A DNA stretch of 64,000 nucleotides from Phycisphaerales bacterium. GTDB lineage: Bacteria > Planctomycetota > Phycisphaerae > SM23-33 > FEN-1343. The position numbers and the translations under genes were made by a program. Below, in pieces: positions 1 to 31,551 of this stretch. The stretch spans positions 34,958 to 98,957 of the forward strand of contig PMYD01000089.1 of the NCBI GenBank assembly GCA_003171335.1, given 5' to 3'. A model generated the notes under the pieces. The model saw only the letters and a list, made by a program, of their open reading frames with translations, was not told where the DNA came from and did not search any database. Every line of letters starts with the position of its first letter. Position 1 is the first letter of the stretch.

Positions 1-1946
1 TAAGTTTGGCGATGACCAACAACACCATCCTGGGCGGCATCAGCAACTTTGCAATCAACGATTACGGCACGGGAAACACGAACCCCGCGGTCCCCACTTC
101 CGGCAAGAAGATTGTCGTCGAGCCCGACAAGTATGAAGCGGGCCGTGCGAACATCGCCATCTACAACTATGACCAGAGCTCGAGTGTTTCGGTAAACGTT
201 TCCTCCGCCGGCCTGGTCAGCGGCTGGAGCTATGAGGTTCGCGATGCGCAGAATTACTTCGGCGCTGCGGTGACCAGCGGCACGTACACCGGCGCGCCCA
301 TTTCCATTCCGATGACCACCGAGTTCCCGGCCATGCCCCTGGCATTGGTGAATCCGCCGCTGTCCACGTGCCCGGCCTTTGGCAGCTTCGTGATTCGTGC
401 GGTGAACAACGCGCCGGTGGTTACCGTCGCCGCCAACCAGACGGTCACCCTGCCCGTCAACTCGGCGACGATCTCCGGCACCACCAGCGACGATGGGCTG
501 CCGGCCGGCCATGCCGTGACCACCGCCTGGACCCAGGTCTCCGGTCCGGCGGCCGCCACCATCACCAATGCGTCGGCCCTGAGTACGACCGTGACCTGCC
601 CGAATGCCGGCACGTACACCTTCCGCTTGACCGCCAGCGATTCGGCCCTGACCGGCTATGGCGACCAGTCGATCACGGTCGTCGACCTCAACGCCAAACG
701 GCTCATGCAGCTGAGTTTCAGCGAAGGCACCGGCCTTACCGCCTTTGACTCCTCCGGCAGCGGAAACAACGGCACGCGGACCGCCGTCGGGGCGGCGCCG
801 CTGCCGACCTGGACCACCACCGGGCCGACCGGCTTTGGCGGCGCCATGCAGTTCGACTCCAACGGCACCCACGTGGATTACGTGGGCGTGCCTTCGTTCC
901 CCCTCACCAACCCCGCCACCGGCACGAACACGGACTTCACCATCGCGTTCTGGTTCAACCCCGGCAACAGTATCGACGCCAACCACAGCAGCTACCACTA
1001 CATGTTCAGTTGGGGCGGCCTGTCCACCGCCAACAGCATTAACGTGTGGCTGACATGCGCCAGCGAGACGCCATCCGGCATTGGAATTCGCACCTTGGCG
1101 TCGGACTCGGCCGGAACCCATCTGAGCAACGATCCGCCTTGGCAGGCGCCGACTCCCGGTGACACCCTGGACGTGTATGATACGTACACTGCCGGTACGG
1201 GCACTTATGCCACCTACCATTTTGCCGATGGCAACTGGCACCATTATGCCCTGACCTTCTCGGCCACTACGGGCAGGACGGTGTACATCGACGGCAACGC
1301 CTTGATCACCGACATGAAGGACGTCGGGCATTCCGTCGTGCCCAACACCTCGAAGCTCTATATCGGCTGCCGTTGCGACACCAATAACGTCCGAAACTAC
1401 GGCGGCCAGATGGACGAGGTGATCGTGATTAGCCACGCCCTGGACGCCAACAACGTTCTGGCACTCATGCAGGTCCAGAACTTGGCCCCCACGGCCAATG
1501 CGGGGCCCAACAAGAAGATCATGCTGTGCACCACCCCCCTCATCAATTCGGTGGCGCTGGCCGGCACGATCAGCGATGATGGCCAGCCCAACCCGCCGGC
1601 CACCTGCACAGCCGCCTGGAGCAAGTTGTCCGGCCCCCCCGCGGCTGTGACGTTCGCCAACCCGGCCGCGGCCAGCACCACGGCCACATTCACCAGCGCG
1701 GGAACCTACGTGCTGCAACTGACCGCCAACGACTCCGTGCTGACCGGCACGAGCAACGTGACGGTGATCATCCTGGCGCCGGGCGACTTCAACGGCGACG
1801 GCAGAGTCGACGGCGTGGACTTCCTGAACTGGCAGAGCCATTACCCCACCACCAGCGGCGGCACCTGCGATCACGGCGACGCCAACGGTGACGGCAAGGT
1901 CGATGGTGTGGACTTCCTGATCTGGCAGTCGCATTACCACGGCTAA
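1..1946 (+). CDS. Secreted multidomain protein with Ig-like repeats, a LamG/concanavalin-like domain and two C-terminal dockerin-type repeats; probably 5'-truncated by the window edge
   Basis: ORF 6..1946 shows no signal peptide at its first Met, so the N-terminus is probably upstream of the window. About 95-aa repeats carry the motif GT(I/V)SDDGLP...TWS.(V/L)SGP. The central region is laminin-G/lectin-like. The C-terminus has two DFNGDG(R/K)VDGVDFL.WQ calcium-binding dockerin type-I-like repeats. A strong terminator follows. Confidence 0.6.
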   Translation, partial: SLAMTNNTILGGISNFAINDYGTGNTNPAVPTSGKKIVVEPDKYEAGRANIAIYNYDQSSSVSVNVSSAGLVSGWSYEVRDAQNYFGAAVTSGTYTGAPISIPMTTEFPAMPLALVNPPLSTCPAFGSFVIRAVNNAPVVTVAANQTVTLPVNSATISGTTSDDGLPAGHAVTTAWTQVSGPAAATITNASALSTTVTCPNAGTYTFRLTASDSALTGYGDQSITVVDLNAKRLMQLSFSEGTGLTAFDSSGSGNNGTRTAVGAAPLPTWTTTGPTGFGGAMQFDSNGTHVDYVGVPSFPLTNPATGTNTDFTIAFWFNPGNSIDANHSSYHYMFSWGGLSTANSINVWLTCASETPSGIGIRTLASDSAGTHLSNDPPWQAPTPGDTLDVYDTYTAGTGTYATYHFADGNWHHYALTFSATTGRTVYIDGNALITDMKDVGHSVVPNTSKLYIGCRCDTNNVRNYGGQMDEVIVISHALDANNVLALMQVQNLAPTANAGPNKKIMLCTTPLINSVALAGTISDDGQPNPPATCTAAWSKLSGPPAAVTFANPAAASTTATFTSAGTYVLQLTANDSVLTGTSNVTVIILAPGDFNGDGRVDGVDFLNWQSHYPTTSGGTCDHGDANGDGKVDGVDFLIWQSHYHG

Positions 1947-1955
1947 GCGAGTTTC

Positions 1956-2007
1956 TTCCCGCCAGGGCGGCGGATCCACCCGGATCCGCCGCCCTGGGGT
2001 TTTTTGA
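1956..2007 (+). terminator. Rho-independent terminator
   Basis: GC-rich inverted repeat CCCGCCAGGGCGGCGGATCC / GGATCCGCCGCCCTGGGG followed by TTTTTTG immediately after the stop at 1946. Confidence 0.75.
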
Positions 2008-2365
2008 TTCCTGGAGGCTTCCGTCTGGACCCGTTGTGAGTTCCTTCCCACCCCGCCGGCGCTGGCAGCGGCCAGCCGGCGGCGATGGCGAAAGCTTTTT
2101 TGCACGCGCGTGATGGCTCGGCCCCAAATGACTGGACCTCTTCACGAGCCGATCTGTCTGTCGTAGGCGCACGGGTTATCAGTTGTCCGCCGAGGATGCG
2201 TCCGAAGGCACGATGGAGGTTGAAGCATTCCTGCCGCTTTGCCCAGCGCAAGAGGAAGGATCCCACCGTCCACCCTGCCAAAGACAGCCGTGCCAAAGGT
2301 GCGACCTTTGCGGCAGCCCTCGAAGTGATGTGTGAAACGCCGGCGTACCTCGAAAAGGATGCGAC

Positions 2366-5227
2366 ATGAAATCTGCAATCCTGCTGTCGGCCGGCGTATT
2401 GTGCATCTCCCTTCTGGTCTGCCCCGCAGTGGCCAAAGACTGGTACATCTCACCTTCGGGCCTGCCCGGCAATGCCGGCACACAGGCGTCGCCGTGGGAT
2501 ATCTCCTCGGCGCTCAATGGCAGCAAGAATGGCAGCATTATGCCCGGCGATACAGTCTGGATGATGGATGGAACCTACATCGGCGATCGCGCCGGCCTCA
2601 ACGGGAACCTGTGGGTCAAGCTGCTGGGCTCCCCCAGTGCGCACATCACCCTGCGACCTGTTCCCGGCGCGCATGCCAAGATTGACGGCGGCCTGGCCGT
2701 TGGCGAAGTCGAGAATTACGGCCAGGGAAACGTGTACACCCCCAGCGAATGGCTGGACATCCGCGATATTGAAATGGCCTCGACGCCGTGGCTGAACAAT
2801 GTCATTTCCCAGCAGTCCGGCCCCTGGCCGGGTGACATTCCCTTGCCATTTGGCGGCGCCAATTTCTTTTGCGGCACCGGCATCCGGGTGATCAACTGCG
2901 TTCTTCATGCCGGCTCGGAAGGCATCTCCTGCTGGCAGGAAGTCACGAACTTTGAGGCCTACGGCAACCTCATCTACGGCTGCGGCTGGGAGGCCCCTGA
3001 TCGCGGCCACGGTCACTGCATCTACACACAGAATGGCGACCCCAACGGCAAGTTCTACCGCGATAACTATTTATCCACTCGCTACCCCGCCGGGCAGCAG
3101 ACGATACAGGCCTATGGCAGCGGAGATGCCAATACCTCCCACTTCTGGGTCGAAGACAACATCGCCACCGATGGCGGTCAGTTCCTGGTGGGCGGCGGCG
3201 GTCCTTCCGATGACAACCACCTGCTGGGCAATATCCTCAATGGGTGCGCTATGTGGGCCGGTTACAGCTTCTCCGCCTACAACCTCAGGTACGAAGTGCG
3301 AGACAATTGGGTCGTTAATGAGAGCATTAATTACTGGCGGATTCAGAACCTGACGGCCAGCAACAACACGGTCATCAACGGAACGATCAACCTTTATCCT
3401 TATCCTGCCACGCCCAATGGGGTGGTCACGCAGGGTTCACCCGTTCCCAGCCAACCGACGATCTTCCTCAAGCCCAATGCCTACGACCCCGCGCGAGCCC
3501 ATCTGGTCATTTTCAACTGGCACAACGCAACGAGTGTCCCTGTAAACTTCGGCGGCCTGGTCGCCTCCGGCGGACCTTTCCGGCTGATGGATCCCAAGAA
3601 CTTCTATGGAACGCCCTTGTTTCAAGGCTATGCCGATGCGACCGGCAGCGCCAATGTTCCTACCGTGGATGCCAACCACAATCCCACGCTGTTCAATGTC
3701 TTCGTTGTGCTTGCCGGCGCCCTGGGCAACATGGCCCCGCAGGCGAATGCCGGGCTTGACCAGTCGGTCACGCCGCCGGCGAACACCGCGACATTGACCG
3801 GCACCGTGACCGACGACGGCCTGCCCACCGGCGCGGTTGTGACGCACACCTGGAGCCAGGTCTCCGGCCCCGCCGCCACGATCGCCAATCCTTCGGCCTT
3901 GTCCACGTTGGTCACCCTGTCGGGCGGCCCGGGAATCTACGTGTTCCGCCTCTCGGCCAGCGACACGGCCCTGAGCAGCTATGACGACTGCCAGGTCACG
4001 CTCATCGGCAATCGACCTCCCGTGGTGAGTGCTGGGGCCGACCAGCACGTCTCTCTGCCGGCGACGACGGCCACGTTGGCCGGCACGGTCAGCGATGACG
4101 GCCTGCCGCCTCCCGGCACCGTCACGTTGGCCTGGACCCTGCAAAGCGGACCCGGAACGGTCAGCTTCGCCAATGCGGCCGCCGCCGCCACGACGGCGAC
4201 GTTTTCCACGACCGGCACGTACGTGCTGCGCCTGACCGCCAGTGATTCAATCCTCCAGGGTTACGCCCAGTGCACCATCACCGTCCAGCCGCCCGGCTTC
4301 GGCGAGCAACCTTTTGCAGGGGTCCCCTGGCTTCTGCCTTGCCGCATCGAGGCGGAGAACTACGACCTGGGCGGGCAGAACGTCGCCTACTATGACACCA
4401 CCCCGGGCAACTCCGGCGGGGCGTATCGCACCGACGATGTCGACATCCGCGTCACCACGGATGTCCGCGGCGGTTACCTCGCCAAGGACATCGTCGCCGG
4501 AGAGTGGCTGAAATACACGGTCAACGTGCCCTGCCTGGGGGTCTACAGCATCAGCGTCCGCACGGCTGGAACCAACACCGGCAAGTATCTGCACATCGAG
4601 TGCGATGGCAACGACGTGACAGGGCACATCAACCTGCCCGCCACCGCGGATTGGGATAACGGAGTGACGACGACCGCGCCCAACTGTGTGCTTCCGGCCG
4701 GCATTCACATCCTCCGGGTGTACTTCGACACGAACGAGTTCAACTTCAACTGGTTCCAAATCGCCACGGTCAATGCCGCCCCAGCCGCCAGCGCCGGGCC
4801 GAACCTGAAGGTGATGATCTCCAACGCCCTGACGTTGGCCGGCTCGATCAGCGATGATGGCCACCCTAGCCCGCCGGCCGCCTGCTCGGCCGCCTGGAGC
4901 AAGCTCTCCGGGCCCGGCACGGTTACATTTACCAACCCGGCAGCGGCCCTCACGACGGCCACCTTCTCCACCGCCGGCACCTACATGTTGCAGTTGACGG
5001 CAAATGATTCGCAGTTTTCCAGCACGAGCACCACGACCGTGACCGTCCTGGCGCCCGGCGATTTCAATGGCGACGGCCTGGTCAACGGCGCGGATTTCCT
5101 CATCTGGCAGCAGCATTACCCGATGCTCAGCGGTGCGGCCGTAAGCGATGGCGACGCCACCGGCGACGGGAAGGTCGATGGCCAGGATTTCCTGGTCTGG
5201 CAGCAGAACTACAAGCCGATGCCGTAG
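2366..5227 (+). CDS. Secreted right-handed beta-helix (pectate-lyase-fold) protein with Ig-like repeats, a CBM6/CBM35-like carbohydrate-binding module and C-terminal dockerin repeats
   Basis: Signal peptide MKSAILLSAGVLCISLLVCPAVA, preceded by RBS AAAAGGA. The N-terminal domain has beta-helix-like repeats (NCVLHAGSEGISCWQ...). Three SDDGLP Ig-like repeats follow. A CBM6-like segment reads CRIEAENYDLGGQNVAYYDTTPGNSGGAYRTDDVDIRVT. The C-terminus has two DFNGDGLVNGADFLIWQ dockerin-like repeats. Confidence 0.7.
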   Translation: MKSAILLSAGVLCISLLVCPAVAKDWYISPSGLPGNAGTQASPWDISSALNGSKNGSIMPGDTVWMMDGTYIGDRAGLNGNLWVKLLGSPSAHITLRPVPGAHAKIDGGLAVGEVENYGQGNVYTPSEWLDIRDIEMASTPWLNNVISQQSGPWPGDIPLPFGGANFFCGTGIRVINCVLHAGSEGISCWQEVTNFEAYGNLIYGCGWEAPDRGHGHCIYTQNGDPNGKFYRDNYLSTRYPAGQQTIQAYGSGDANTSHFWVEDNIATDGGQFLVGGGGPSDDNHLLGNILNGCAMWAGYSFSAYNLRYEVRDNWVVNESINYWRIQNLTASNNTVINGTINLYPYPATPNGVVTQGSPVPSQPTIFLKPNAYDPARAHLVIFNWHNATSVPVNFGGLVASGGPFRLMDPKNFYGTPLFQGYADATGSANVPTVDANHNPTLFNVFVVLAGALGNMAPQANAGLDQSVTPPANTATLTGTVTDDGLPTGAVVTHTWSQVSGPAATIANPSALSTLVTLSGGPGIYVFRLSASDTALSSYDDCQVTLIGNRPPVVSAGADQHVSLPATTATLAGTVSDDGLPPPGTVTLAWTLQSGPGTVSFANAAAAATTATFSTTGTYVLRLTASDSILQGYAQCTITVQPPGFGEQPFAGVPWLLPCRIEAENYDLGGQNVAYYDTTPGNSGGAYRTDDVDIRVTTDVRGGYLAKDIVAGEWLKYTVNVPCLGVYSISVRTAGTNTGKYLHIECDGNDVTGHINLPATADWDNGVTTTAPNCVLPAGIHILRVYFDTNEFNFNWFQIATVNAAPAASAGPNLKVMISNALTLAGSISDDGHPSPPAACSAAWSKLSGPGTVTFTNPAAALTTATFSTAGTYMLQLTANDSQFSSTSTTTVTVLAPGDFNGDGLVNGADFLIWQQHYPMLSGAAVSDGDATGDGKVDGQDFLVWQQNYKPMP

Positions 5228-5468
5228 CGAATTTCAGGCCCCAGGGTCTGATGGGAAGACTCGCATGAACGAATAGTGGCGCCGCTGAGCCTGCCACGTG
5301 ATTCGCAGGCGAGGGAGCGTACGCTTGAACGTAGAGCCGTTACACATGGAGTTGCGTTTTCCTGACCTGTCACAGAAAGAGTCCCGAACTGGCGAAAGCC
5401 GTGGTATAATGTGGTTTACAACCTTCAGGCAGTAAGCCCGCCTGCACGCAACGAAGAAGGAGGAGGTT

Positions 5469-8400
5469 ATGTTCCGATCCGTGACCCTCATGAGCTTGTC
5501 GATGCTGCTGATTGCCCTTACGAACGCCCCGCCGATGGCCGGCGCGGCTATTGTGCTGAATGAGGACTTCGACAGCGGCGGCTTGAACGTGCCCCTGTGC
5601 ATAATCAATACGAGCAACCCCTCCCGGCCCGCCATCACCCTGGCCGGCCGGTATAACTGGCCTGAAGACCCCAGCCAGTGGGCGTGGATGATGTTCTCCA
5701 TGACCGGGGCAAATGCCACCACGCCCCAATTCACCGTGTTGGCAAGCAATATCGGCGGCGGGGTTTATTACCCAGCGAGCTGGACACGCTATGTCTACAG
5801 CTATGACCAGCAGAATTGGTTCTTCTTCGACAACGGCTCGCTGAATTCCGGGTCGCTCATTTACAGCTTCAGCAACAATTCCGCGTTCAATCAGAACACC
5901 GTGTATGTCGCCCTGGGCATTCCTTATCCCTGCTGGCGGACCGCGGCGTTCGTGGCCTCCATCAAGAGCAATCCCTACGTGAAACCCACCGCCAGCGCCG
6001 ATGCGAATTGCATTGTCGGGAACACCCCTGGCACCTACGGGCACGACGCCAACGGCAATCTGTATTACGATGACATGGGCCGAGTGGTCCCGTCCATGCC
6101 CGTTTTCGGCTTCATGATCAACGACGCCAACGCCACCGGCCCCAAGACCCGCGTGGTGATGCAGAGCGGCAACCACGGCGCTGAGCACTGGGCGCATTAT
6201 GCCCTGGAGGGTATGGTCCAGGCGCTGCTGTCGAACGATCCGAACATGGTCGCCCTGCGGCAGAAGGCGATCTTCTTCATCTATCCGGACGTCAATCCGG
6301 AAGGCAATTACTGCGGCTACTGGCGCTCGACGCCCGTCAACCCGGGTAACCTTCCTGGTCTTACCGCGGACCACAACCGGCTCTGGGCCGACCCCAACGG
6401 CCTGGCCGTCGGCTTTGGCGGTCCCACCAGGAATCCGGAAATTGCCATCGTCGAGAACGCCCAGCGCGCTGATGCTGGAAGCGCCGAATACTTCCTCGAT
6501 GTGCATGGCACCTGGGATCCCACTTCAGGTCCGGATTATCTGAATCTCACCTCCTACAATTCCGCCTTGGCGAACAACCTTCGTCTGATTGATCCGGGCG
6601 ATATCGGAGCGGAAACTTACTGGGGCGATCTGCGGTTTGCGATGGGGTACGCCTCGGCGCCGGTTTCTACCGGCGGCCTGGCCGCGGTCACCAGCCTCAC
6701 GCCCGAGATCGGCATGAAGGCCGGAGAGACCGCCGACTATAACCGGCAACTGGGCAAGTACTATATGATGGCCCTGTACGCCACGCTGAACGCCCCGGGT
6801 AACAATTTTCCCCCGACCGTCAGCGCCGGCGCCAACCAGACCATCCACCTGCCGACAAACACGGCAAGCTTGGCCGGCACCGTCAGCGATGATGGCCTGC
6901 CGACCGGCTCGGCCGTCACCGTTACCTGGAGCAAGGTCAGCGGCCCGGGCACGGTCACCTTCGCCAACGCCAGCGCCGCGGCCACCCGGGCGACCTTCTC
7001 GACCTCGGGCACCTACATCCTCCGCCTGACCGCCACGGACACGGCTTTGCCGACCTTCGCGCAAATGCAAGTCACGGTAGCCTCGGGCAATGCACCCCCT
7101 GTAGTCAACGCGGGAGCCAACCAGAGCATTACGCTGCCCATCAACACCGTCAACCTGGTCGGTACGGTCAGCGATGACGGTCTGCCCACCGGGGCGGCCG
7201 TGACGACCACCTGGAGCCGCCTGGGCGGCCCGGGCAGCGTCACCTTCGCCAACCCCAGCGCCTTGAGCACCACAGCCACGTTCTCAACGGCGGGCACCTA
7301 TGTATTGCAACTAGCGGCCAGCGACACGGCGTTGACTGGCACCAGCAACCTGCAGGTTACGGTTATCCCCGCGAATCAGGCTCCCGTAGTTAATGCCGGT
7401 GCGAATCAGGCCATCACGCTGCCGGTTAACACCGTCGCGCTGGCCGGTACGGTCAGCGATGATGGTCTGCCCACCGGGGCGGCTGTGACGACCACATGGA
7501 GCCGCCTCAGCGGTCCGGGCAACGTGACCTTCGCCAACACCAGCGCCTTGAGCACCGCGGCCACGTTCTCAACGGCGGGCACGTACCTGCTGCAACTGGC
7601 GGCCAGCGACACGGCTCTGACTGGCACGAGCAATATTCAGGTTACGGTTGCCCCCGGCGTTAATCAGGCTCCGGTAGTCAGCGCCGGTGCTAACCAGGGC
7701 ATCACGCTGCCGATCAACACCGTTGCGCTGACCGGTACGGTCAGCGATGACGGCCTGCCCTTCGGGGCGGCCGTGACGACCACATGGAGCCGCCTGGGCG
7801 GCCCGGGCAGCGTCACCTTCACCAACGCCAGCGCCTTGAGCACCACAGCCACGTTCTCAACGGCGGGCACGTACATGCTGCAACTGGCGGCCAGCGACAC
7901 GGCTCTGACTGGCACGAGCAACATGCAGGTTACGGTTGCCCCCCCGGGTAATCAGGCTCCCGTGGTCAGTGCCGGTGCGAATCAGACCATCACGCTGCCG
8001 GCCAACACCGTCGCGCTGGCCGGTACGGTCAGCGATGACGGACTGCCCACGCCTCCCGGCGCCGTCACGCTGGCCTGGACCCTGCAAAGCGGGCCCGGAA
8101 CGGTCAGCTTCGCCAATGCGGCCGCCGCCGCCACGACGGCCACGTTTTCGACGGCCGGTACGTACGTGCTGCGCCTGACGGCCAGCGACACGGCGTTGAC
8201 ATCGTATGGCCAGTGCACAGTCGTGGTGCAGCCGCCAGCGTCGCCGTCGCACGCAGAACGCATCCTGATTGATGTCGGTGACCCAACGACCGGCAGTGGC
8301 ACGGGTTGGAACAATTTCACCGTACATCCTCACTGGTCTGGCACTCCGGGCGTGGACCAGGATGGTTACGATGTGTACCTGCAAGAGCTTGCTCCTGGCG

Positions 8401-9335
8401 CCGTGGTTGACTCCAACAATGCCAATCTTCCCGGCGTGGCGTTCGGCGTCTCGAACCTCGACGATGTCAGAACCAATTCCGGCACGGCCAACAGCTACAC
8501 CGTGGATGGTCTGACCTATCCCCTCACCGCAACCGAGGACATCGCCCAGAGCGTTGACGCGACCCAAGGCGATATTAATGGCCCAACGACCGGTTACATG
8601 GCCAGACTCATCATCTCCGGCCTGACCGGCTCGTCCTATAATGTCCGCCTGCTGAGCGCGCGCGACAGCGGTGGCACTCGGTTGGGCTACTTCCGCATCA
8701 ATGGCGGCGCCATCCAGTCCGTTGACTCGGGCAATGCCCCGGCCCTTTTGACCTTCCCCAAATGTGCTCCGGCCGCCATTACCTGCGGCCAGACGAACCT
8801 TTCAAACGCCATCGAAGTGGAGTTCTGGGGCACAGTCGGTGGTACCGTGGACCTGAACCTGATCGATATGGTTGCCGTTCCCTCCAACACTCCCCCGACG
8901 GTCACCGCCAGCGCCGTGTACCCCAAAGTCATGATTCCCAACGGCCTGTCTCTGAGTGGCACGGTCAGCGATGATGGCCTGCCCGCCGGCAGCACGGTCA
9001 CGGTCGCCTGGAGCGAGGTCTCCGGCCCCGGCAACGTGACCTTCGCCAATCCGACCGCTACCAGCACGATGGCCACCTTCTCCTCGGCCGGCACCTACGT
9101 GCTCCAGTTGGCGGCCAGCGACACGGATAAGACCGGCACGGGCAACGTGACCGTGACCGTCCTGGCCCCTGCCGATTTCAACGGCGATGGCAAGGTCGAC
9201 GGCGTGGACTTCCTGATCTGGCAGAGCCATTACCCCACCGCCAGCGGCGGCAAGCCGGAGAGCGGCGATGCCAACGGCGATGGCAAGGTTGATGGCGTGG
9301 ACTTCCTGATCTGGCAGTCGCACTATACCGGGTAA
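5469..9335 (+). CDS. Secreted M14-family zinc carboxypeptidase-like domain fused to 8-9 tandem Ig-like repeats and a C-terminal dockerin module
   Basis: Strong RBS GAAGGAGGAGG and a signal peptide. An HxxE zinc motif (SGNHGAEHW) and a downstream LDVHGTW histidine are typical of M14 peptidases. Nearly identical ~95-aa repeats follow (APVVNAGANQ.ITLP.NTV.L.GTVSDDGLPTGAAVTTTWSRL.GPG.VTFAN.SALSTTATFSTAGTY.LQLAASDTALTGTSN.QVTV). The C-terminus has dockerin repeats, followed by a terminator. Confidence 0.7.
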   Translation: MFRSVTLMSLSMLLIALTNAPPMAGAAIVLNEDFDSGGLNVPLCIINTSNPSRPAITLAGRYNWPEDPSQWAWMMFSMTGANATTPQFTVLASNIGGGVYYPASWTRYVYSYDQQNWFFFDNGSLNSGSLIYSFSNNSAFNQNTVYVALGIPYPCWRTAAFVASIKSNPYVKPTASADANCIVGNTPGTYGHDANGNLYYDDMGRVVPSMPVFGFMINDANATGPKTRVVMQSGNHGAEHWAHYALEGMVQALLSNDPNMVALRQKAIFFIYPDVNPEGNYCGYWRSTPVNPGNLPGLTADHNRLWADPNGLAVGFGGPTRNPEIAIVENAQRADAGSAEYFLDVHGTWDPTSGPDYLNLTSYNSALANNLRLIDPGDIGAETYWGDLRFAMGYASAPVSTGGLAAVTSLTPEIGMKAGETADYNRQLGKYYMMALYATLNAPGNNFPPTVSAGANQTIHLPTNTASLAGTVSDDGLPTGSAVTVTWSKVSGPGTVTFANASAAATRATFSTSGTYILRLTATDTALPTFAQMQVTVASGNAPPVVNAGANQSITLPINTVNLVGTVSDDGLPTGAAVTTTWSRLGGPGSVTFANPSALSTTATFSTAGTYVLQLAASDTALTGTSNLQVTVIPANQAPVVNAGANQAITLPVNTVALAGTVSDDGLPTGAAVTTTWSRLSGPGNVTFANTSALSTAATFSTAGTYLLQLAASDTALTGTSNIQVTVAPGVNQAPVVSAGANQGITLPINTVALTGTVSDDGLPFGAAVTTTWSRLGGPGSVTFTNASALSTTATFSTAGTYMLQLAASDTALTGTSNMQVTVAPPGNQAPVVSAGANQTITLPANTVALAGTVSDDGLPTPPGAVTLAWTLQSGPGTVSFANAAAAATTATFSTAGTYVLRLTASDTALTSYGQCTVVVQPPASPSHAERILIDVGDPTTGSGTGWNNFTVHPHWSGTPGVDQDGYDVYLQELAPGAVVDSNNANLPGVAFGVSNLDDVRTNSGTANSYTVDGLTYPLTATEDIAQSVDATQGDINGPTTGYMARLIISGLTGSSYNVRLLSARDSGGTRLGYFRINGGAIQSVDSGNAPALLTFPKCAPAAITCGQTNLSNAIEVEFWGTVGGTVDLNLIDMVAVPSNTPPTVTASAVYPKVMIPNGLSLSGTVSDDGLPAGSTVTVAWSEVSGPGNVTFANPTATSTMATFSSAGTYVLQLAASDTDKTGTGNVTVTVLAPADFNGDGKVDGVDFLIWQSHYPTASGGKPESGDANGDGKVDGVDFLIWQSHYTG
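7081..8230 (+). repeat. Intragenic tandem array of ~290-300-bp near-identical DNA repeats, each encoding one Ig-like domain
   Basis: Consecutive units at about 7081, 7376, 7672, 7966 are ~85-90% identical at the DNA level. One repeat type (8000-8200) is ~90% identical to 4070-4260 in the neighbouring gene. Confidence 0.75.
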
Positions 9336-9392
9336 CAGCCTGATGAGAGACCGGCGCTGACGGCGGACTAAATCAGAACCGTCGCGTGTCCA

Positions 9393-9434
9393 AAAAGAGA
9401 GACCCGCAAGCTCTGGACTTGCGGGTCTTTTTTT
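9393..9434 (+). terminator. Rho-independent terminator (bidirectional-looking: A-run, stem, T-run)
   Basis: AAAAAGAGA GACCCGCAAGCTCTGGACTTGCGGGTC TTTTTTT immediately after the 1288-aa gene. Confidence 0.8.
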
Positions 9435-9439
9435 GCGAT

Positions 9440-9510
9440 CTGGGGAACTAGGATTCGAACCTAGACTAACTGATCCAGAGTCAGTTGTGCTGCCGTTACA
9501 CTATTCCCCA
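9440..9510 (-). tRNA. tRNA-Gln (anticodon CTG)
   Basis: The reverse complement reads TGGGGAATAGTGTAACGGCAGCACAACTGACTCTGGATCAGTTAGTCTAGGTTCGAATCCTAGTTCCCCAG. The acceptor stem is 7 bp, the anticodon stem is ACTGA/TCAGT with loop CTCTGGA (anticodon CUG), the T arm is CTAGG-TTCGAAT-CCTAG, and the discriminator is G. No CCA is encoded. Confidence 0.85.
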
Positions 9511-9661
9511 GTAAGGCTTAGGGGTCGCACGGCCGACACCAAAAGGGGCGTCAGCTGGACGCCCAGAGACACCAGAAGTGTAGTCATCCTGGCGGGCAAG
9601 TCAAGTATCTGGCCGCGGCAGGTGGACAGCTTTGAACTGGCCCCGTTCCGGCAGCCGACCC

Positions 9662-10009
9662 CTATGCGGCGACCGCGATGATGGGTTCGTCGGCGCAGAG
9701 CGTGGCCATGGGCCGTTCGAATTCGATGCCCAGCTGGTGCATGCCGTCGGCCATGTGGCACCGGCGAATGATGCCGCAGATGTTCCGCACGCTCATGCCG
9801 GCTCCCGGCAGGCGGACCATGACCCGCTGGCCCGGGTAGTGCCAGCGGCCCGCCAGGGCGCCCAGGCCCCCGCGGCTGATGTCTACCATTTCAACCTGTT
9901 CCACCACGTCCCCGCCGTCGGGGTCCAGGCGGGTTAATTGCACGGGCATGCGAACTTGCGTCCGCGGGTACAGCCGCCGCTCGGCCAGCAACGTTTCAGT
10001 GCCTAGCAT
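9662..10009 (-). CDS. PilZ domain protein (c-di-GMP receptor-like)
   Basis: RxxxR (ERRLYPR) and D.S.GG (DISRGGLG) PilZ motifs. The longest ORF would overlap the divergent cobA start, so the internal Met at 10009 (MLGTETLL...), which puts RxxxR near the N-terminus, is preferred. Confidence 0.6.
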   Translation of the reverse strand: MLGTETLLAERRLYPRTQVRMPVQLTRLDPDGGDVVEQVEMVDISRGGLGALAGRWHYPGQRVMVRLPGAGMSVRNICGIIRRCHMADGMHQLGIEFERPMATLCADEPIIAVAA

Positions 10010-10124
10010 ATTTCGCGCTCCACGAGGGATTTGCCTCGTTGGTCGCATCGACCGACCAGAGGGGCAACTTGATTTGTGCGTAACGGTTTTGCGGTCTGTA
10101 GGGTTGGCCCTGTAGAATGCGACC

Positions 10125-11660
10125 ATGGCCATTACGCCGTCAGAAGGCGAAGTTGTGCTCGTGGGCGCCGGTCCGGGTGATCCTGGGTTGATTACCCTAG
10201 AGGCCCTGCGCTGGCTTGCCCGGGCCGACGTGGTTTTCTACGATCGCCTGGCCCCACCGCAGTTGCTGGACTTCACGCCGGCGGCGGCCACTCGTGTCTA
10301 CGTCGGCAAGTCCAGCGGCGAAAAGGGCTTATCACAGGAAGAGATCAACCACCGGCTGATCGACGCCGCCCGGGCGGGAAAACTGGTCGTCCGACTCAAG
10401 GGCGGCGACCCCTTCCTCTTCGGCCGCGGTGGCGAGGAAGCCTCAGTCCTCAAAGCGGCCGGCGTGAGCTACCGCGTAGTGCCGGGCATCACGGCGGCCT
10501 GCGGTGCGGCCGCATGGAACGGCCTGCCGCTGACCGACCGGCGGCTGGCAAGTACCGTCGCCTTTGTCACCGCCGAGGAAGACCCGGCCCACGCTTCGGG
10601 CCGGGTGAATTGGGCGGCGCTGGCGGGTATCGACACGGTGGTTCTTTACATGGGCGTCAAGACGCTCGATGGCGTGGCCGCCAGGCTTATCGCCGCGGGC
10701 AAAGCGGCCGACACGCCGGCCGCGATCATCGAGCGCGCCACGTTGCCCGGCCAGCGAGTGATTTCGGCGACGCTCAAAACGATCGCTCAGGCGGCCGCCG
10801 CGGCGGATATTCAGCCGCCGGCCATCACCATTGTCGGACCGGTGGTCTCGCTCGCCGCCCAGCTTGATTGGCGCTCGGCCTTACCGCTGGCGGGGCGAAC
10901 GATCGTGATCACCCGGCCGGCGGACCAATCGATGCGGCTGCGCGACCAGTTGTCTGACCTGGGCGCCGATGTGCTGACCGCCCCGGCAGTCGAGGTTCGC
11001 CCGGCGGAGGATCTCGCGGCCGTGGATGCGGCACTGAGACAAATAGACCAATATGCCTGGATCTGCTTCACCAGCGCGCATGGCGTGGCCGCGTTTCTCC
11101 AGCGGGCGGTGTCGCTGGGGCTTGATGGCCGGGCGTTTGGCGGTGTGAAGATCGCCGCCATCGGCCCGGCGACGGCCGAGGCGCTGGGCCGGCATTTCCT
11201 GCGACCCGACCTGCTGCCGCATCGCTACACCGGGCAGGATCTGGCCGAGGAAATCCTCGCCCGCGATGGCGCGCCAGGCGGCGGCCGCGTGCTGCTGGCC
11301 CGCTCCGACCTTGCCCAGCCGGAACTGCCGGCGGCCCTCCGCCAAGCGGGGGTCGTTGTCGACGATGTGGTCGTCTACCGCAGCGTTTGCCCCGCTTCTT
11401 TGCCTGTGGATGTCGTGGCCGCCCTGGCCGCGGGCAAAGTGAACTGGGTGACATTTACCAGCGGGTCCACCGTTCGGAATTTCCTGGCGCTGGCCCGCCG
11501 GCAGGAGGTGGCGCTGGATGGTGTGAAGCTGGCCAGCATCGGCCCCTCGACCTCTGCCGCCTTGCGTGAGGCGGGCCTGGAGGTGCATGTCCAGGCGCAG
11601 CCGCACACCGCTGAGGGGCTGTGCGCCGCCCTGCTGGCGGCCGAGGGCATCAGCCCATGA
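10125..11660 (+). CDS. cobA-hemD: Uroporphyrinogen-III C-methyltransferase / uroporphyrinogen-III synthase fusion
   Basis: The N-terminal SUMT motif VVLVGAGPGDPGLITLEALRWLARADVVFYDRL and the GGDPF block identify the methyltransferase half. The C-terminal half is HemD-like (TIVITRPADQS...). Confidence 0.85.
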   Translation: MAITPSEGEVVLVGAGPGDPGLITLEALRWLARADVVFYDRLAPPQLLDFTPAAATRVYVGKSSGEKGLSQEEINHRLIDAARAGKLVVRLKGGDPFLFGRGGEEASVLKAAGVSYRVVPGITAACGAAAWNGLPLTDRRLASTVAFVTAEEDPAHASGRVNWAALAGIDTVVLYMGVKTLDGVAARLIAAGKAADTPAAIIERATLPGQRVISATLKTIAQAAAAADIQPPAITIVGPVVSLAAQLDWRSALPLAGRTIVITRPADQSMRLRDQLSDLGADVLTAPAVEVRPAEDLAAVDAALRQIDQYAWICFTSAHGVAAFLQRAVSLGLDGRAFGGVKIAAIGPATAEALGRHFLRPDLLPHRYTGQDLAEEILARDGAPGGGRVLLARSDLAQPELPAALRQAGVVVDDVVVYRSVCPASLPVDVVAALAAGKVNWVTFTSGSTVRNFLALARRQEVALDGVKLASIGPSTSAALREAGLEVHVQAQPHTAEGLCAALLAAEGISP

Positions 11661-14364: not shown

Positions 14365-15780
14365 ATGGGTGCCATGATTAAGTTGATGTTTCTCGACTAT
14401 CGCGACCTGGAAGTCGTCACAGCCTTCACGCGGCAGGCGCATCCGCCCATCAAGCACGCGGGCGACCCCTTGCTGCGGTCGGACCTGCCCACCGAAGACA
14501 ACCTGATGAGCATGTTCGGCACCGTCATCCGCCGGCCCACCGACGGGTTGTGGCAGTACTGGTACAAGTGCTTTAACCCGAACGAGAAGGGCCCGGCCCT
14601 GGGATACGCCCAGAGCCGCGACGGCGTGAAGTGGGAACGCCCCGGCATGGGCGTGGTCAGCTTCAAAGGCCAGGACACGCACATCGTTTTCGATGCGGGG
14701 CCGCACGGGACGGCGGTGATCTACGATGAGCAGGAAACCCGCCCCGCCTGGCGCTACAAGATGGTGCACGGCTCCAACCCCACCAAGCGGATCTCCGCCC
14801 ACCGCAGCCCCGACGGCATTCACTGGACAGCGGCCGGCGAGAACCCCGTCGTGTGCGCCACCGCCGGCGGCCCCCTGGGGCTGATGCGGGCCCAGGATGG
14901 CCGGTACGTGATGTACATCCGGCCTTGCAAGGGCGATCGCCGCGTGGCCCGAGCCGAATCGTGGGATTTCATCCACTGGACCGAGCCGGTGGTGGTGATC
15001 GACCAGGATCCTATCGACCCCGTCCAGGTGCAGTTCTACGGCATGGATGCCTGGCCCTACGGCGGCTACGAGATGGGGCTGCTGTGGATCTACGACACCG
15101 ACGCCGACGACCTGGCCTTCCACAAGCCGCGCGGGCGGATGTTCCCCGAGCTGGCGTATACCCGTAGCGGCTACGCCTGGCACCGCGCCAGCGTGGGCAC
15201 GCGCTGGATCGACCTGGGCGCCCCGGGAACCTGGGACCACGCCCAGATCCACCCTTCCAGCCTGCCGGTCTACCTCGACGATGAAGTCCGCTGGTACTAC
15301 ACCGCCTGTTCCGTGCCGCACGAGTTCGTGGCCCGCGGCGGCGAGCCTACCTGGGCCTTCGGCTACGCCTCCAGCCGGCCCGATCGCTACATCAGCCTGA
15401 ACGCCGGCCAGCAGGAGGCCCAACTGCTCACCCGGCCGTTCTGGAGCGAGGTGGGCGAGTTCTTCGCCAACGCCCAGATCGACCGCGGCGGTTACGTGAA
15501 GGTGGAAGTCACCGACACGGCGGGTGCGGCCGTCGAAGGCTTCTCGCTGGCTGATGCCCAGACGCTCCAGGGCGACGATCTGCGGCATCGTCTGGCCTGG
15601 AGCAAAGGCAAGCCGGCCGCACTGGCCAATAAACAGATCCGCCTGCGCATCCGCGCCAAGAACGCCAAGCTCTTCTCCCTGGCCGGCGGCACGGAAGCCC
15701 AGGCCAAGCAATACTGGCGATTCCGAATCCCGCATTTCATGCCCATGGATGAGGAAAAGGCCCTGGTGGGCATCGGCTAG
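14365..15780 (+). CDS. Glycoside-hydrolase-like 5-bladed beta-propeller protein (GH43/GH32/GH130-clan-like)
   Basis: Recurrent D-G-x-x-W blades (SRDGVKWERP, SPDGIHWT, WDFIHWTEP). No signal peptide. Family assignment is tentative. Confidence 0.5.
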   Translation: MGAMIKLMFLDYRDLEVVTAFTRQAHPPIKHAGDPLLRSDLPTEDNLMSMFGTVIRRPTDGLWQYWYKCFNPNEKGPALGYAQSRDGVKWERPGMGVVSFKGQDTHIVFDAGPHGTAVIYDEQETRPAWRYKMVHGSNPTKRISAHRSPDGIHWTAAGENPVVCATAGGPLGLMRAQDGRYVMYIRPCKGDRRVARAESWDFIHWTEPVVVIDQDPIDPVQVQFYGMDAWPYGGYEMGLLWIYDTDADDLAFHKPRGRMFPELAYTRSGYAWHRASVGTRWIDLGAPGTWDHAQIHPSSLPVYLDDEVRWYYTACSVPHEFVARGGEPTWAFGYASSRPDRYISLNAGQQEAQLLTRPFWSEVGEFFANAQIDRGGYVKVEVTDTAGAAVEGFSLADAQTLQGDDLRHRLAWSKGKPAALANKQIRLRIRAKNAKLFSLAGGTEAQAKQYWRFRIPHFMPMDEEKALVGIG

Positions 15781-17734: not shown

Positions 17735-17913
17735 CCTAAAGCACGCCCCGCCGCTTGTACAGGCAAAGTGAAGTCCTGAGGTGGCATGCCCTCACGCCGT
17801 GGGCCGCCAAGGCGGCCAAGGCGAGTGGGCATGGCTCATCCAGCAAGCCTGTCCGGCCGCATAAAATGGGTTGGCCTATGCGATTTCTCCTTTCGCTGCC
17901 AAAGGCGCAACCG

Positions 17914-18972
17914 ATGATGGTGAAACGTTCCGACGCCAATCCGTTGATCAGCCCCGCTTCGGTCGTACCCACGCGCGAGGATGTCGAGATCTACTGCACG
18001 ATCAACCCGGCCGCCACGTGGCTTAGTAGCGGCGAGGCGCTGCTGCTGGTCCGCGTGGGCGAGCGGCCGCTGCCGGTGGAAGGCACGGCCGCCGCACTGG
18101 TCTTCGATTACGCCAGCGGGAAGACGGAGGTCCGCCGGTATCGGCTCGACGACCCAAAGGTGGACATCCAGGATGGTCGAACCTTTCATTACGAAGGCCG
18201 CCGGCTGCTCACCAGCCTGTCGCACCTGCGAATCGCCCGCAGCCGCGACCTGCGCTCCTGGCGGCTCGATCCGCAGCCGGCCATCGCCCCGACCACCGAG
18301 TGGGAGGCGTACGGCTGCGAGGATGCCCGCATTACGCCGCTGGAGGGGCGATACTACATCACCTACACGGCCGTCAGCCACCTGGGCATCAACGCCATGC
18401 TGGCGGTGACGGATGATTTTGTGCGCTTCGAGAAGCTGGGCATCATCATCCCCACGTACAACAAGGATGTGTGCATCTTCCCGGAGCGCATCGGCGGGCG
18501 GTATGTCTGCCGGCACCGGCCCTACCGCAGCGAGTTCAACGAGCCGAACATCTGGACCGCCTGGTCGCCGGACCTGAAACACTGGGGCGACCATTCCGTA
18601 CTGCACCGGCCGGTGCACGGCACGTGGCAGTCGGAGCGCGTGGGCGCCGGCGCCCCGCCCATCCGCACCGAGGCCGGCTGGCTGGAAATCTTCCACGGCA
18701 GCGACCCGGCCGGCCGCTACGGCCTGGCGGCCATGCTCTCGGAACTGGACCACCCCGAGCGGCTGATCGGCTACTCCGAACCTGTGCTCCAGCCGCAGGA
18801 ACTCTATGAAACGGCAGGCATTTACGGCCAATGCGTCTTCAGCAACGGCCTCTTGACCCATTCCGACGGCCGGCTGACCATCTTCTACGGCGGTGCCGAC
18901 ACGATCGTCGCCGCAGCGCAAACGACGGTTCAAGAAATGGTTAACGCGGTGAAAGAAGCGAACCGTCGCTAA
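17914..18972 (+). CDS. GH130-family glycosidase/phosphorylase (DUF377/BT_1033-like beta-mannoside phosphorylase family)
   Basis: GH130 motifs GCEDARITPLEGRYYITYTA, IFPERIGGRY..HRP, GAPPIRTEAGWLEIFHG, and FYGGADTIVAAA at the C-terminus. The start was chosen at ATGATG 17914, which has RBS AAAGG. Confidence 0.75.
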   Translation: MMVKRSDANPLISPASVVPTREDVEIYCTINPAATWLSSGEALLLVRVGERPLPVEGTAAALVFDYASGKTEVRRYRLDDPKVDIQDGRTFHYEGRRLLTSLSHLRIARSRDLRSWRLDPQPAIAPTTEWEAYGCEDARITPLEGRYYITYTAVSHLGINAMLAVTDDFVRFEKLGIIIPTYNKDVCIFPERIGGRYVCRHRPYRSEFNEPNIWTAWSPDLKHWGDHSVLHRPVHGTWQSERVGAGAPPIRTEAGWLEIFHGSDPAGRYGLAAMLSELDHPERLIGYSEPVLQPQELYETAGIYGQCVFSNGLLTHSDGRLTIFYGGADTIVAAAQTTVQEMVNAVKEANRR

Positions 18973-22853: not shown

Positions 22854-23231
22854 CCGCAGTTTGATTACCGGCCAAGGCGAGCCATTGACACCCGAAAAGC
22901 ATTGCCTATAATTTTTCCTGTACCTTCGGCACGAAGCGCAGGAGACCCTGGTGCGGACGCCCCTGACAGGTCAAGCTGCCAGCGAGGCCGGCCCGAGCGG
23001 CCGGACGGGCGATCTCCGCGCCGGCATCATTGCCGCTGTCCCTGTACGCTGCGTGCCTTAGGGCTTGCCTCGTGCATCTGGCATGCCGGCCCTGAGGCGT
23101 GATGGCTTCGGGGCTTTTTTTCTTGCCCCGCGGCGATTTGACGGTCGCCCGGCTCGCTGGAAACGGGCCTGAACGGCTCGGCCGGCCGCGACCGATAAGA
23201 AACCCATGTGCCCAGGAGGCATCGAACAACC

Positions 23232-24830
23232 ATGGGCAAGACCGACAAACGCAGAATCGAGATCTACGACACCACGCTGCGCGATGGCACGCAGGGCGAG
23301 GGCGTCAGCCTGTCGCTGGAAGACAAGCTGCGCATCGCCGAGAAGCTCGACACGCTGGGCGTGGATTACATCGAGGGCGGCTACCCCCTTTCCAACCCCA
23401 AGGATGCCGGCTTTTTCCGCGAGATCACCCGGCGCGCCATCCGCCAGGCGAAGATCGCCGCGTTCGGCATGACCCGCCGGCGCGATGCCAAGGCGGATGA
23501 AGATGCCGGCATGAAGGCCCTGCTGGACTCCCACGCGCCCGTCTGCACCATCGTGGGCAAGAGCTGGGATCTGCACGTCCGCGAGGTGCTGCGAGTCAAC
23601 GATGATGAAAACCTGGCGATGATCGCCGACAGCGTGGCCTTCTGCGCCAAACACGGCCGCGAGGTGATCTACGACGCCGAGCATTTCTTCGATGGCTACC
23701 GCGCCAACGCGCCGTACGCCCAGGCCACGCTGAAGGCGGCCCTGGAGGCCGGGGCCACGCACCTGGTGCTGTGCGACACCAACGGCGGCTCGCTGCCTGG
23801 CCAAGTGGCCCAGATCGTCGCCGAGGTCCTGGCGGCACTGCCGGCGGCGCGGCTGGGCATCCACACGCACAACGACAGCAACCTGGCCGTGGCCACCGCC
23901 CTGGCCGCCGTCCAGGCCGGGGCCGTGCAGGTCCAAGGCACGGTCAACGGCGTGGGCGAGCGCACGGGCAATGCCGACCTGACCAGCGTCATCCCCAACC
24001 TGGTCCTGAAATGCGGCTTTGACTGCCTCCGGCCCGGCTCGCTGTCGCACCTGACGGAGGTGAGCCGTTTCGTGTACGACGTGGCGAATCTGAACTTCCG
24101 CAGCGACCAGCCGTTCGTCGGCCGCTCGGCCTTCGCCCACAAGGGCGGCATGCACGTGCACGCGGTGACGCGCAACACCCGCACCTACGAGCACATCGAC
24201 CCGGAGGCGGTGGGCAACACGCGGCGAATCCTGGTGAGCGAGCTATCGGGCGCGAGCAACATCGCCGCCACCGCCGGCGAAAAGTTCCATATTCTCGATA
24301 ACCGGGCGGCCCAGAAAAAGGTGCTCGACGAGGTCGTCCGCCTGGAGGCCGAGGGCTACCAGTTCGAAACGGCCGAGGCGAGTTTCCAACTGCTGGTGCG
24401 AAAGACGCTCGGCGGGGAGTGGTGGCCCGGGCAGTTCTGGGAGCTGGGTCACTTCCGCTGCAACATCTACCGCCAGAACGGCCAGCCGGCCGAGACCGAG
24501 GGCGTGGTCTGCCTGACCATCAACGGCTGCCAGGAGCACACGGTCTCCAGCGGCGATGGCCCGGTCAACGCCCTGGATGGCGCGCTGCGCAAGGCCCTGC
24601 GCCCCCACTACCCCTGCGTGGACCAGATCCACCTGGATGACTACAAGGTCCGCGTGGTCAACGCCGTGGAAGAGACGGCCGCCAAGGTGCGCGTCACCAT
24701 CAGCTTCCACGATGATCAGCACGCCTTCGGCACCGTCGGCGTCAGCACCAATATCATCGAAGCATCCTGGCTGGCCCTGACGGATGCGTTTGAGTATGAG
24801 CTGGTGAAAGCGATGGAGAGGGACGGGTGA
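23232..24830 (+). CDS. cimA: (R)-citramalate synthase / LeuA-family 2-alkylmalate synthase
   Basis: IEIYDTTLRDGTQGEGVSLSLEDKLRIAEKLDTLGVDYIEGGYP is the DRE-TIM aldolase signature of the LeuA/CimA family. A ~530-aa length with a C-terminal regulatory domain fits CimA. RBS AGGAGG precedes the ATG at 23232. Confidence 0.75.
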   Translation: MGKTDKRRIEIYDTTLRDGTQGEGVSLSLEDKLRIAEKLDTLGVDYIEGGYPLSNPKDAGFFREITRRAIRQAKIAAFGMTRRRDAKADEDAGMKALLDSHAPVCTIVGKSWDLHVREVLRVNDDENLAMIADSVAFCAKHGREVIYDAEHFFDGYRANAPYAQATLKAALEAGATHLVLCDTNGGSLPGQVAQIVAEVLAALPAARLGIHTHNDSNLAVATALAAVQAGAVQVQGTVNGVGERTGNADLTSVIPNLVLKCGFDCLRPGSLSHLTEVSRFVYDVANLNFRSDQPFVGRSAFAHKGGMHVHAVTRNTRTYEHIDPEAVGNTRRILVSELSGASNIAATAGEKFHILDNRAAQKKVLDEVVRLEAEGYQFETAEASFQLLVRKTLGGEWWPGQFWELGHFRCNIYRQNGQPAETEGVVCLTINGCQEHTVSSGDGPVNALDGALRKALRPHYPCVDQIHLDDYKVRVVNAVEETAAKVRVTISFHDDQHAFGTVGVSTNIIEASWLALTDAFEYELVKAMERDG

Positions 24831-31144: not shown

Positions 31145-31551
31145 GGCTGTTCTTCCTTCTGGGCCGGTCGCCCGCAGACGCCGGCGGTGGTTCCTTAGAG
31201 AATCTGTCGCACGCGTTTCGCACCACCACTTGATAGTCGAAACGGCCGAACCGGCCATTGGCGATCAGTCTTTTCAGTCATCATCATTTCCTTGCCACGA
31301 TGAAGGCATAAAAAAACCCGCGACATTGCAAGGTCGCGGGGCAAGTTCGTCAAGTCTGGCGTAATTCGATCAGCCCGAGCGACCCACTAGCACAGCAATA
31401 GCCCCAGTCGTAGGGCGAGGGTCAAAATATTGCTGCCGCAGGTCATCGGGTGCTCGCTTTTTCGGACTTCTATAGAGATAGTATCGTCCCGTTTGGCGAA
31501 AGCAAGAAGAAAAAGCAGGCTGCAAACCTTGGGGCAGACCGGAGCCGCACT

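Follow-up and report, generated by a model that had tools for sequence, protein, structure and literature searches.

Planctomycetes play a major part in breaking down complex polymers in soil and water, and how enzymes are retained at their unusual surface is poorly understood. Three consecutive genes at the left end of a 64-kb stretch of DNA from a Phycisphaerales bacterium (contig PMYD01000089.1, positions 34,958 to 98,957; hereafter the window) raise this question in a concrete form: each of their products, here called g1, g2 and g3, ends in a dockerin. What are these proteins, and to what would their dockerins attach them? The reading favoured here, with a probability of roughly 0.6, is that g1-g3 are separately encoded, secreted modular exo-enzymes held at the cell surface via the dockerin by a partner encoded elsewhere. 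The locus is not a new kind of system: its architecture, lineage and peptidase-dockerin pairing have been noted already, and it is an ordinary example for its group. It is also a compact and well-resolved case of dockerin-tailed enzymes outside Firmicutes, with intact catalytic features and a record of module exchange, and a convenient start for asking whether planctomycetal dockerins bind cohesins.

Dockerin tails and modular heads

The three open reading frames (ORFs) lie on the + strand and fill the first 9.3 kb of the window. The 5' part of g1 is supplied by an overlapping 97-kb ENA metagenome contig (ERZ19970544, c_000000007342; hereafter L001), which was reached by an exact-protein match. 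The genes, their heads, binding modules and dockerins are as follows.

Up to 1946, + strand: g1, the 3' two-thirds of a 971-amino-acid (aa) gene, its 5' part lying beyond the window start
909..1457, + strand: Laminin_G_3 (LamG) module of g1, concanavalin-A-like lectin/glucanase (Pfam score 42.8 bits, cut-off 27.6, at residues 302-484 of the window ORF)
1779..1943, + strand: dockerin of g1, half-repeats DFNGDGRVDGVDFLNWQSHY and DANGDGKVDGVDFLIWQSHY (Dockerin_1 29.8 bits, 30.8 in full-length g1)
2366..5227, + strand: g2, 953 aa, with signal peptide, beta-helix head, two PKD modules, CBM6/35 module, PKD module and dockerin
2438..3715, + strand: right-handed parallel beta-helix head of g2 (homologues, AlphaFold model, Foldseek)
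4427..4762, + strand: CBM6/CBM35 carbohydrate-binding module of g2 (Pfam CBM_6 55.1 bits, CBM_35_2 49.7 bits)
5054..5224, + strand: dockerin of g2 (Dockerin_1 27.3 bits)
5469..9335, + strand: g3, 1288 aa, with signal peptide, M14_N domain, M14 catalytic domain, five tandem PKD modules, X domain, PKD module and dockerin
5559..6803, + strand: M14 metallocarboxypeptidase head of g3, N-terminal beta-sandwich plus catalytic domain (Pfam, alignment)
8226..8876, + strand: X domain of g3, about 215 aa, without known family
9162..9332, + strand: dockerin of g3 (Dockerin_1 33.0 bits; half-repeats identical at 19 of the first 20 residues)

An earlier reading of the window from its letters alone (the sequence-only reading) had described three consecutive dockerin-tailed genes with two repeats each, which is borne out. 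According to Pfam, all three C-terminal Dockerin_1 (PF00404) scores exceed the gathering cut-off of 22.9 bits. The DG(x)DFLxWQ half-repeat, written as a degenerate DNA pattern, occurs at exactly six sites in the 64 kb, two at each gene end, and nowhere in 100 shuffles, the two half-repeats of each gene being 31 residues apart. The proteins stop 6-9 residues after the dockerin. The same reading had also called them giant; at 950-1290 aa they are large only.

Searched by sequence against PDB, the 61-residue tail of g3 has bona fide dockerins as its best matches (E from 3.5e-6 to ~1e-2). Its structural model, with a predicted local distance difference test score (pLDDT) of 92.4, consists of two loop-helix units (helices at residues 21-30 and 52-61, each after a loop). 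In a Foldseek search of PDB with this model, ranks 1-19 are all occupied by dockerins from cohesin complexes, the best match being 2y3n_B, with template modelling (TM) scores of 0.73/0.78 and a root-mean-square deviation (rmsd) of 1.9 A over 58 columns. The Foldseek E-values are weak because the domain is tiny; the ranking is unambiguous. Judged by sequence and modelled fold, the tails are genuine two-repeat type-I dockerins. The likeness to clostridial cellulosomal enzymes (2y3n, 6kg9, 2vn5) extends to the order of enzyme, linker, carbohydrate-binding module (CBM) and C-terminal two-repeat dockerin (TM 0.73-0.78 and rmsd 1.9 A for the predicted model). The host here, however, is a Gram-negative planctomycete, the heads are beta-helix and M14 domains rather than cellulases, PKD arrays replace the Pro/Thr linkers, and sequence identity to solved dockerins is ~20-33%.

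As for the other end of the proteins, signal-peptide-like N-termini are present in all three, judged by eye (MKSAILLSAGVLCISLLVCPAVA/KD, MFRSVTLMSLSMLLIALTNAPPMAGA/A and ...LVCAIAAITCLLVSSPAPAA/QW); that of g1 is MSGRGSHVLSLVCAIAAITCLLVSSPAPAA/QWYVSP.

The head of g3 is a member of the M14 peptidases, with Pfam scores of 27.0 bits for Peptidase_M14 (cut-off 21.6) and 27.8 bits for Pepdidase_M14_N (cut-off 23.2). It has only 11 homologues in a search of 5.8 billion sequences. In the alignment of these homologues H236, E239, N303 and H346 are invariant, and R286, R304 and E413 nearly so. We take H236, E239, R286, N303, R304, H346 and E413 to be the counterparts of H69, E72, R127, N144, R145, H196 and E270 of carboxypeptidase A, respectively, with matching spacings. 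Searched against PDB, the family profile retrieves the bacterial CCP-like M14 enzymes 3k2k, 4b6z, 3l2n and 4a37 (E from 1.8e-30 to 3.2e-26), which share with g3 the N-terminal beta-sandwich, the carboxypeptidase domain and the conserved zinc/catalytic residues. Since the catalytic set is complete and the profile matches solved CCP-like enzymes, the head looks like an active metallocarboxypeptidase. The solved chains, however, have 388-405 residues, whereas the g3 head is presumably exported and is fused to six PKD modules, the X domain and the dockerin.

No match to the X domain was found in Pfam, NCBIfam or PDB. A search of 1.84 billion representative proteins gave just ten clusters, in which the domain accompanies PKD and dockerin, M14 and PKD, or eight PKD modules, or stands by itself with a PEP-CTERM anchor. 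It is thus a rare and so far uncharacterised domain of extracellular proteins in Planctomycetota.

The head of g2, a stretch of ~450 aa to which Pfam assigns no family, has 378 homologues, mostly stand-alone proteins of ~406 aa from Phycisphaerae, where the family is abundant, Sedimentisphaerales and other Planctomycetota; where named, they are annotated as "right-handed parallel beta-helix repeat-containing protein". Its AlphaFold model (pLDDT 91.5) consists of a right-handed beta-helix and, after it, a small beta-sandwich, and its N-terminal cap is like that of PL9 PelX/PelN. For the CBM6/35 module of g2, PDB sequence matches to CBM6 modules range from E 5e-25 to 7e-12. The complete g1 (L001:6666-9581) comprises a signal peptide, a beta-helix head, PKD, LamG, PKD and dockerin, and its head is a paralogue of that of g2 (28% identity, E 1e-35). 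Both heads are probable glycan-active enzymes, a polysaccharide lyase or hydrolase, to go by the model. The LamG, CBM6 and M14 modules named by the sequence-only reading all lie above their Pfam cut-offs, as does the CBM35 match. Its "LamG-like head" of g1, however, was an effect of the window edge: LamG is an internal module, because the full gene starts with the signal peptide and the beta-helix head.

Docking partner and surface retention

Under the favoured reading, g1-g3 would be exported by Sec. The LamG of g1 and the CBM6/35 of g2 would target their beta-helix heads, and the PKD modules would serve as spacers, with arrays projecting the catalytic heads outward. The calcium-loaded dockerin would then bind a partner protein, holding the enzymes on or near the cell surface, where glycan- and peptide-degrading activities may act jointly on complex polymers. 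The partner could be of the cohesin type, as in the hypothetical planctosome of Phycisphaerae.

The planctosome was proposed for freshwater Phycisphaerae (Nemodlikiaceae), in which cohesin/dockerin proteins would tether M12B and M14 peptidases (Andrei et al. 2019, ISME J, PMC6461901). It shares with the present locus the class Phycisphaerae, a non-cellulolytic use of dockerins and a dockerin-borne M14 zinc carboxypeptidase (PMC6461901). Its peptidases, however, are of M14 subfamily A and of the M12B endopeptidase type, and its cohesin adaptor and anchor proteins are identified. The present locus differs in having a CCP-like M14 enzyme with a beta-sandwich at its N-terminus and predicted glycan-active beta-helix proteins as the other two of its three subunits, and neither a cohesin nor an adaptor or LTD anchor was detected in the window and its flanks. 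A 2024 survey reports a further phycisphaeral case, Limihaloglobus, with a Coh2-Doc1-Coh1 protein and 13 dockerin fusions (PMC11557425).

The sequence-only reading had called the combination of an M14 peptidase with a dockerin unusual. In a search for related loci with a 4-sequence alignment of the M14 head, every locus with a relative of this head belongs to a metagenome-assembled genome (MAG) of Planctomycetota (Phycisphaerae, Pirellulales, Bythopirellula). The closest, at 64% identity, is in an uncultured Phycisphaerales MAG (contig L003), where M14 paralogues of the g3 head, at least five in number, lie clustered (L003:3506-18333). One of the proteins of L003 (959 aa) consists of M14, PKD, CBM6/35, PKD and Dockerin_1, that is, the head of g3 joined to the binding module of g2. 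Some ORFs of L003 look frameshifted (overlap 8984-10405 / 10092-11210), possibly through long-read errors. A Joint Genome Institute (JGI) metagenome protein, P0003, has M14, two PKD modules and a dockerin. Among more distant homologues of the M14 head, P0005 and P0006 end in PEP-CTERM, and P0010 has a sub-threshold Dockerin_1 match of 21.1 bits. Because it recurs in L003 and P0003, the M14-dockerin fusion is not unusual in the lineage, and it also figures in the planctosome hypothesis (PMC6461901). In these predicted proteins the fusion is recurrent, and its modules are recombined in different orders.

Several results weigh against the favoured reading. No cohesin was found by Pfam among the genes scanned in the 64-kb window, ~7.6 kb upstream and ~6 kb downstream, the scan combining precomputed Pfam matches with separate scans of every substantial gene of the window and flanks. 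Among 57 homologous dockerin tails that were aligned, 18 run directly into a PEP-CTERM-like signal; where a protein bears both, the main anchor cannot be the dockerin, which may then have a role that needs no cohesin. The positions which we take to be the cohesin contacts of clostridial type-I dockerins are Ser-Thr in those proteins and Gly-Val here, from which specificity is not inferable.

The planctosome itself is a hypothesis, seldom mentioned in the literature searched. As for the beta-helix heads, the nearest solved folds to that of g2 according to Foldseek are GH136 lacto-N-biosidase, PL9 rhamnogalacturonan lyase, GH138 BT_1002 and PL6 lyases. The likeness to these right-handed beta-helix enzymes (PL9 rhamnogalacturonan/pectate lyases, PL6, GH136, GH138) does not go beyond the fold (TM 0.24-0.41, 10-15% identity) and the motif of the N-terminal cap. 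The PL9 structures 5olq and 5olr are among the top matches with TM of only 0.24-0.39, and a PDB search with the g2 head by sequence gave no match. With solved enzymes matching at fold level alone, the catalytic activity of the beta-helix proteins is putative, as is any substrate. The family PF22842 (Pel9A-like beta-helix) stands in the precomputed Pfam tables for g1 and most homologues of the g2 head, but a separate hmmscan of Pfam-A gave no match even at E<=1 for g1 or for the g2 head (window 2366-3760); the precomputed table may have used another version or threshold.

The strongest competitor, which we consider doubtful but well worth weighing, holds that the dockerin-fold tail binds no cohesin and is a calcium-stabilised terminal module with another role in Planctomycetota. 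It could bind a surface glycan or a non-cohesin receptor, or it could be a stalk or sorting element that aids or replaces PEP-CTERM/exosortase anchoring. The 18 tails placed immediately before a PEP-CTERM-like signal speak for it. So do the homologues of the M14 head and of the X domain in other Planctomycetota that bear PEP-CTERM where the present proteins have PKD-dockerin, and the cohesin scan. A full-text literature search for dockerin and PEP-CTERM together found no paper, which also favours this alternative.

The same ending is common outside the M14 relatives. Pirellulales and Lacipirellulaceae proteins named "dockerin type I domain-containing protein" are extracellular and multidomain, with the same DxNGDGxVDGxDFLxWQ double repeat above the PF00404 threshold, and in many of them the double repeat stands immediately before PEP-CTERM. 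In contrast, g1-g3 and their closest homologues end after the dockerin, with no PEP-CTERM ending (no PF07589 match) in g1, g2 or g3. At least 25 of the 57 tails end right after the dockerin, and all close homologues of the g1-g3 tails are in that group, like classical enzyme-borne dockerins. This counts against a role without cohesin, as do a tail fold indistinguishable from that of cohesin-binding dockerins and the cohesin-bearing proteins reported in other Phycisphaerae. Furthermore, ~90 kb without a cohesin says little about a genome of several Mb. The sequence-only reading took the dockerins to imply a cohesin-like partner; with about one third of the homologous tails preceding a PEP-CTERM anchor, that step is something we infer and no more. 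The simplest reading of the two endings, to go by the alignments, would be that dockerin and PEP-CTERM both serve surface retention.

A bolder reading has, in our view, a rather small chance of being right. It supposes that the dockerins of these and many other planctomycetal exo-enzymes dock to a receptor other than a canonical cohesin, or to one too divergent to be recognised. The result would be a surface display specific to the PVC superphylum (Planctomycetes, Verrucomicrobia and Chlamydiae), evolutionarily interchangeable with PEP-CTERM, in which glycan- and peptide-degrading subunits stand on PKD stalks whose length is tuned by gene conversion or copy-number change. The interchangeability is suggested by the M14 and X domains, each of which is found with one ending here and with the other elsewhere.

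PKD modules and their exchange

The favoured reading also includes an account of the stalks: gene conversion or unequal recombination would exchange PKD modules and PKD-dockerin cassettes, inside each of the three genes and from one to another, and would homogenise them. The ~95-aa Ig-like "SDDGLP" module that the sequence-only reading had recognised in all three genes is a K319L-like PKD domain (PF22352). With a cut-off of 27 bits, g1 scores 93.5 (2 stretches), g2 131.9 (3 stretches) and g3 258.1 (6 stretches), which makes 11 copies in the window.

396..680, + strand: g1a, K319L-like PKD module
1482..1766, + strand: g1b, PKD module (module alignment)
3719-4003 and 4001-4285, + strand: g2a and g2b, PKD modules (Pfam, module alignment)
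4107..4245, + strand: gene-conversion tract, g2 copy, 94% identical to 8050-8188 (95% in the middle third of the module)
4760..5044, + strand: g2c, PKD module (module alignment)
6795..8225, + strand: tandem PKD array of g3, with g3a 6795-7079, g3b 7080-7364, g3c 7365-7649, g3d 7653-7937 and g3e 7941-8225
8050..8188, + strand: gene-conversion tract, g3 copy, within the mosaic module g3e
8877..9161, + strand: g3f, PKD module (module alignment)

The amplification in g3 is somewhat smaller than the at least seven tandem copies reported at first, with five in tandem and one separate, i.e. six. Tandem Repeats Finder describes the array as having a period of 285 and 4.3 copies, and the pairwise identity of its modules is 69-88%. 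The modules had also been described as ~90% identical in DNA between genes. This is true of one tract, ~140 nucleotides (nt) at 94% (roughly 190 nt by eye on the alignment). The aligned ranges originally put forward, 4070-4260 vs 8020-8190 and 1790-1946 vs 9170-9335, have 81% each, and almost all pairs of modules from different genes have 56-70%.

The mosaic structure of the modules was assessed by a codon-aware comparison by thirds. In its first third, g3e shares 87% of its positions with g3c and 69% with g2b, whereas in its second third it shares 95% with g2b and 66% with g3c. For g1b and g2c the identity is 82% in the middle third and 67% in the first, and in g3b, g3c and g3d the best-matching partner switches from block to block. 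At third codon positions most module pairs have 40-60% identity, compared with 68-82% in converted pairs. Because mosaic modules show such block-wise switches of identity, the alignments support the view that PKD modules are swapped by ongoing exchange, within and between genes. The earlier suggestion of gene conversion and module shuffling is sustained by the mosaic g3e and by the relative with M14, PKD, CBM6/35, PKD and dockerin.

Could the five-unit array and the inter-gene tracts be an artefact of assembly? An independent assembly from the same population, JGI contig L002, is 99.83% identical to the window over 7.7 kb. Between L002:7260-8175 and window 6795-8225, however, the offset jumps by exactly 288 nt, which gives a c/d hybrid unit and four tandem units, not five. 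The jump falls in a 46-nt run that is identical in g3c and g3d (7588-7633 = 7876-7921), the contig stops 115 nt past it, and such repeats are hard for short-read assemblers. Against an artefact, the units diverge by 12-31% and each is distinguishable, whereas an artefactual expansion would give identical copies; because of this divergence the five units of the window are not such an expansion. In addition, an identical 1288-aa g3 product is found on three long contigs, the frames are open, and every unit scores as a PKD domain. We therefore regard an artefact in the window as improbable. The difference of one unit in L002 is either a short-read collapse or a real variant from unequal crossover. 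As for the predicted variation in copy number between strains, the independent assembly does differ by one 288-nt unit, but collapse fits equally well.

Gene neighbourhood

The gaps between the genes are 419 nt (g1-g2) and 241 nt (g2-g3), and the first of them contains one further feature.

1962..1997, + strand: terminator-like hairpin 3' of g1, with a 16-bp stem, 13 G-C pairs and a T-run (consensus scan)

The hairpin suggests that g1 may be transcribed apart from g2. A single operon for g1-g2-g3 was considered and is weakened by this strong, G+C-rich hairpin after g1; the three genes are probably not one operon, according to a scan that used the consensus only and in which the total of terminator-like sites was not above that of shuffled sequence. 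A genomic island or horizontal transfer was likewise considered and set aside: the G+C content of the cluster (61-64%, vs 60-68% elsewhere in the window) gives no clear signal, and with a tRNA-Gln gene and cas genes on its flanks, no integrase or direct repeats were found around the cluster.

The cluster is bracketed by the tRNA-Gln on one side and the cas genes on the other. The tRNA-Gln(CTG) gene (9439-9511, - strand) lies ~100 nt downstream of g3 and has a terminator-like hairpin at 9428-9400. Upstream of g1, on the opposite strand, L001:1-6232 contains the type I-E CRISPR-Cas genes cse1, cas7 and cas5. Beside them is a gene for a 620-aa protein that combines a cysteine protease domain of the calpain type with a Pro-rich stretch and weak matches to calcium repeats. 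To the right, the tRNA-Gln gene is followed by genes for PilZ, CobA/HemD, an MBL-fold protein, a PAS histidine kinase, a GH43/GH130-like protein, a PMT_2 glycosyltransferase and GH130, and then by housekeeping genes.

The GH43/GH130-like protein (471 aa, window 14365-15780) has no Pfam matches, and its sole family similarities are weak ones to GH130-type beta-1,2-mannoside phosphorylase and mannosidase. It was considered as a cohesin candidate and rejected, being GH43/GH130-like instead. A homologue with 25% identity (E 1e-27) is encoded at L003:6657-8390, within the M14/dockerin cluster of that relative. The GH130 gene (17755-18972) lies downstream of the gene for the 471-aa protein. These GH130-like neighbours may hint at a glycan handled by the locus.

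The description of the locus as a cellulosome-like component set is not supported: neither cellulase families nor a scaffoldin or cohesin turned up in the window and flanks scanned. A bona fide cellulosome for plant cell-wall cellulose in a Gram-negative host is accordingly very improbable. The dockerin tails and the CBM6/35 module fit one, as do GH130 and the GH43/GH130-like protein a few kb downstream, but the heads are beta-helix and M14 domains with no GH5/9/48 cellulase families among them, one of the three subunits is a peptidase, and the only member of the PVC superphylum in a survey of cellulosome producers was judged non-cellulolytic (PMC11557425). Least probable of all, hardly worth retaining, is that the tails are generic EF-hand calcium sites resembling dockerins: the calcium-loop motif DxNxDGxVD is common to EF-hands and weak EF-hand matches stand low in the lists, but EF-hand_1 reaches 10.5 bits against a cut-off of 25.4, and EF-hand proteins rank below the dockerins in the sequence search (SCaMC and troponin C, E > 0.08) as well as in the fold search (troponin C, the first of them, at Foldseek rank 21 with probability 0.02). 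The refutation that the sequence-only reading had foreseen for its dockerins thus fails.

Past the right end of the window, on the - strand relative to it, L012:1-4926 encodes a surface protein of at least 1844 aa. It contains some nine repeats of the Big_9/cadherin-like type, a PKD domain and, according to precomputed matches, a Pel9A-like beta-helix, with no dockerin and no cohesin. A polysaccharide-export gene (Poly_export/SLBB) adjoins it. Among the housekeeping genes, a fragment of a DDE_3 transposase gene is located at window ~46900-47500 (precomputed match, end of contig L010). Finally, two LeuA/HMGL-like genes of the 2-isopropylmalate or homocitrate synthase type (23208-24830 and 29561-31258) lie on opposite strands within 7 kb and flank a valyl-tRNA synthetase gene.

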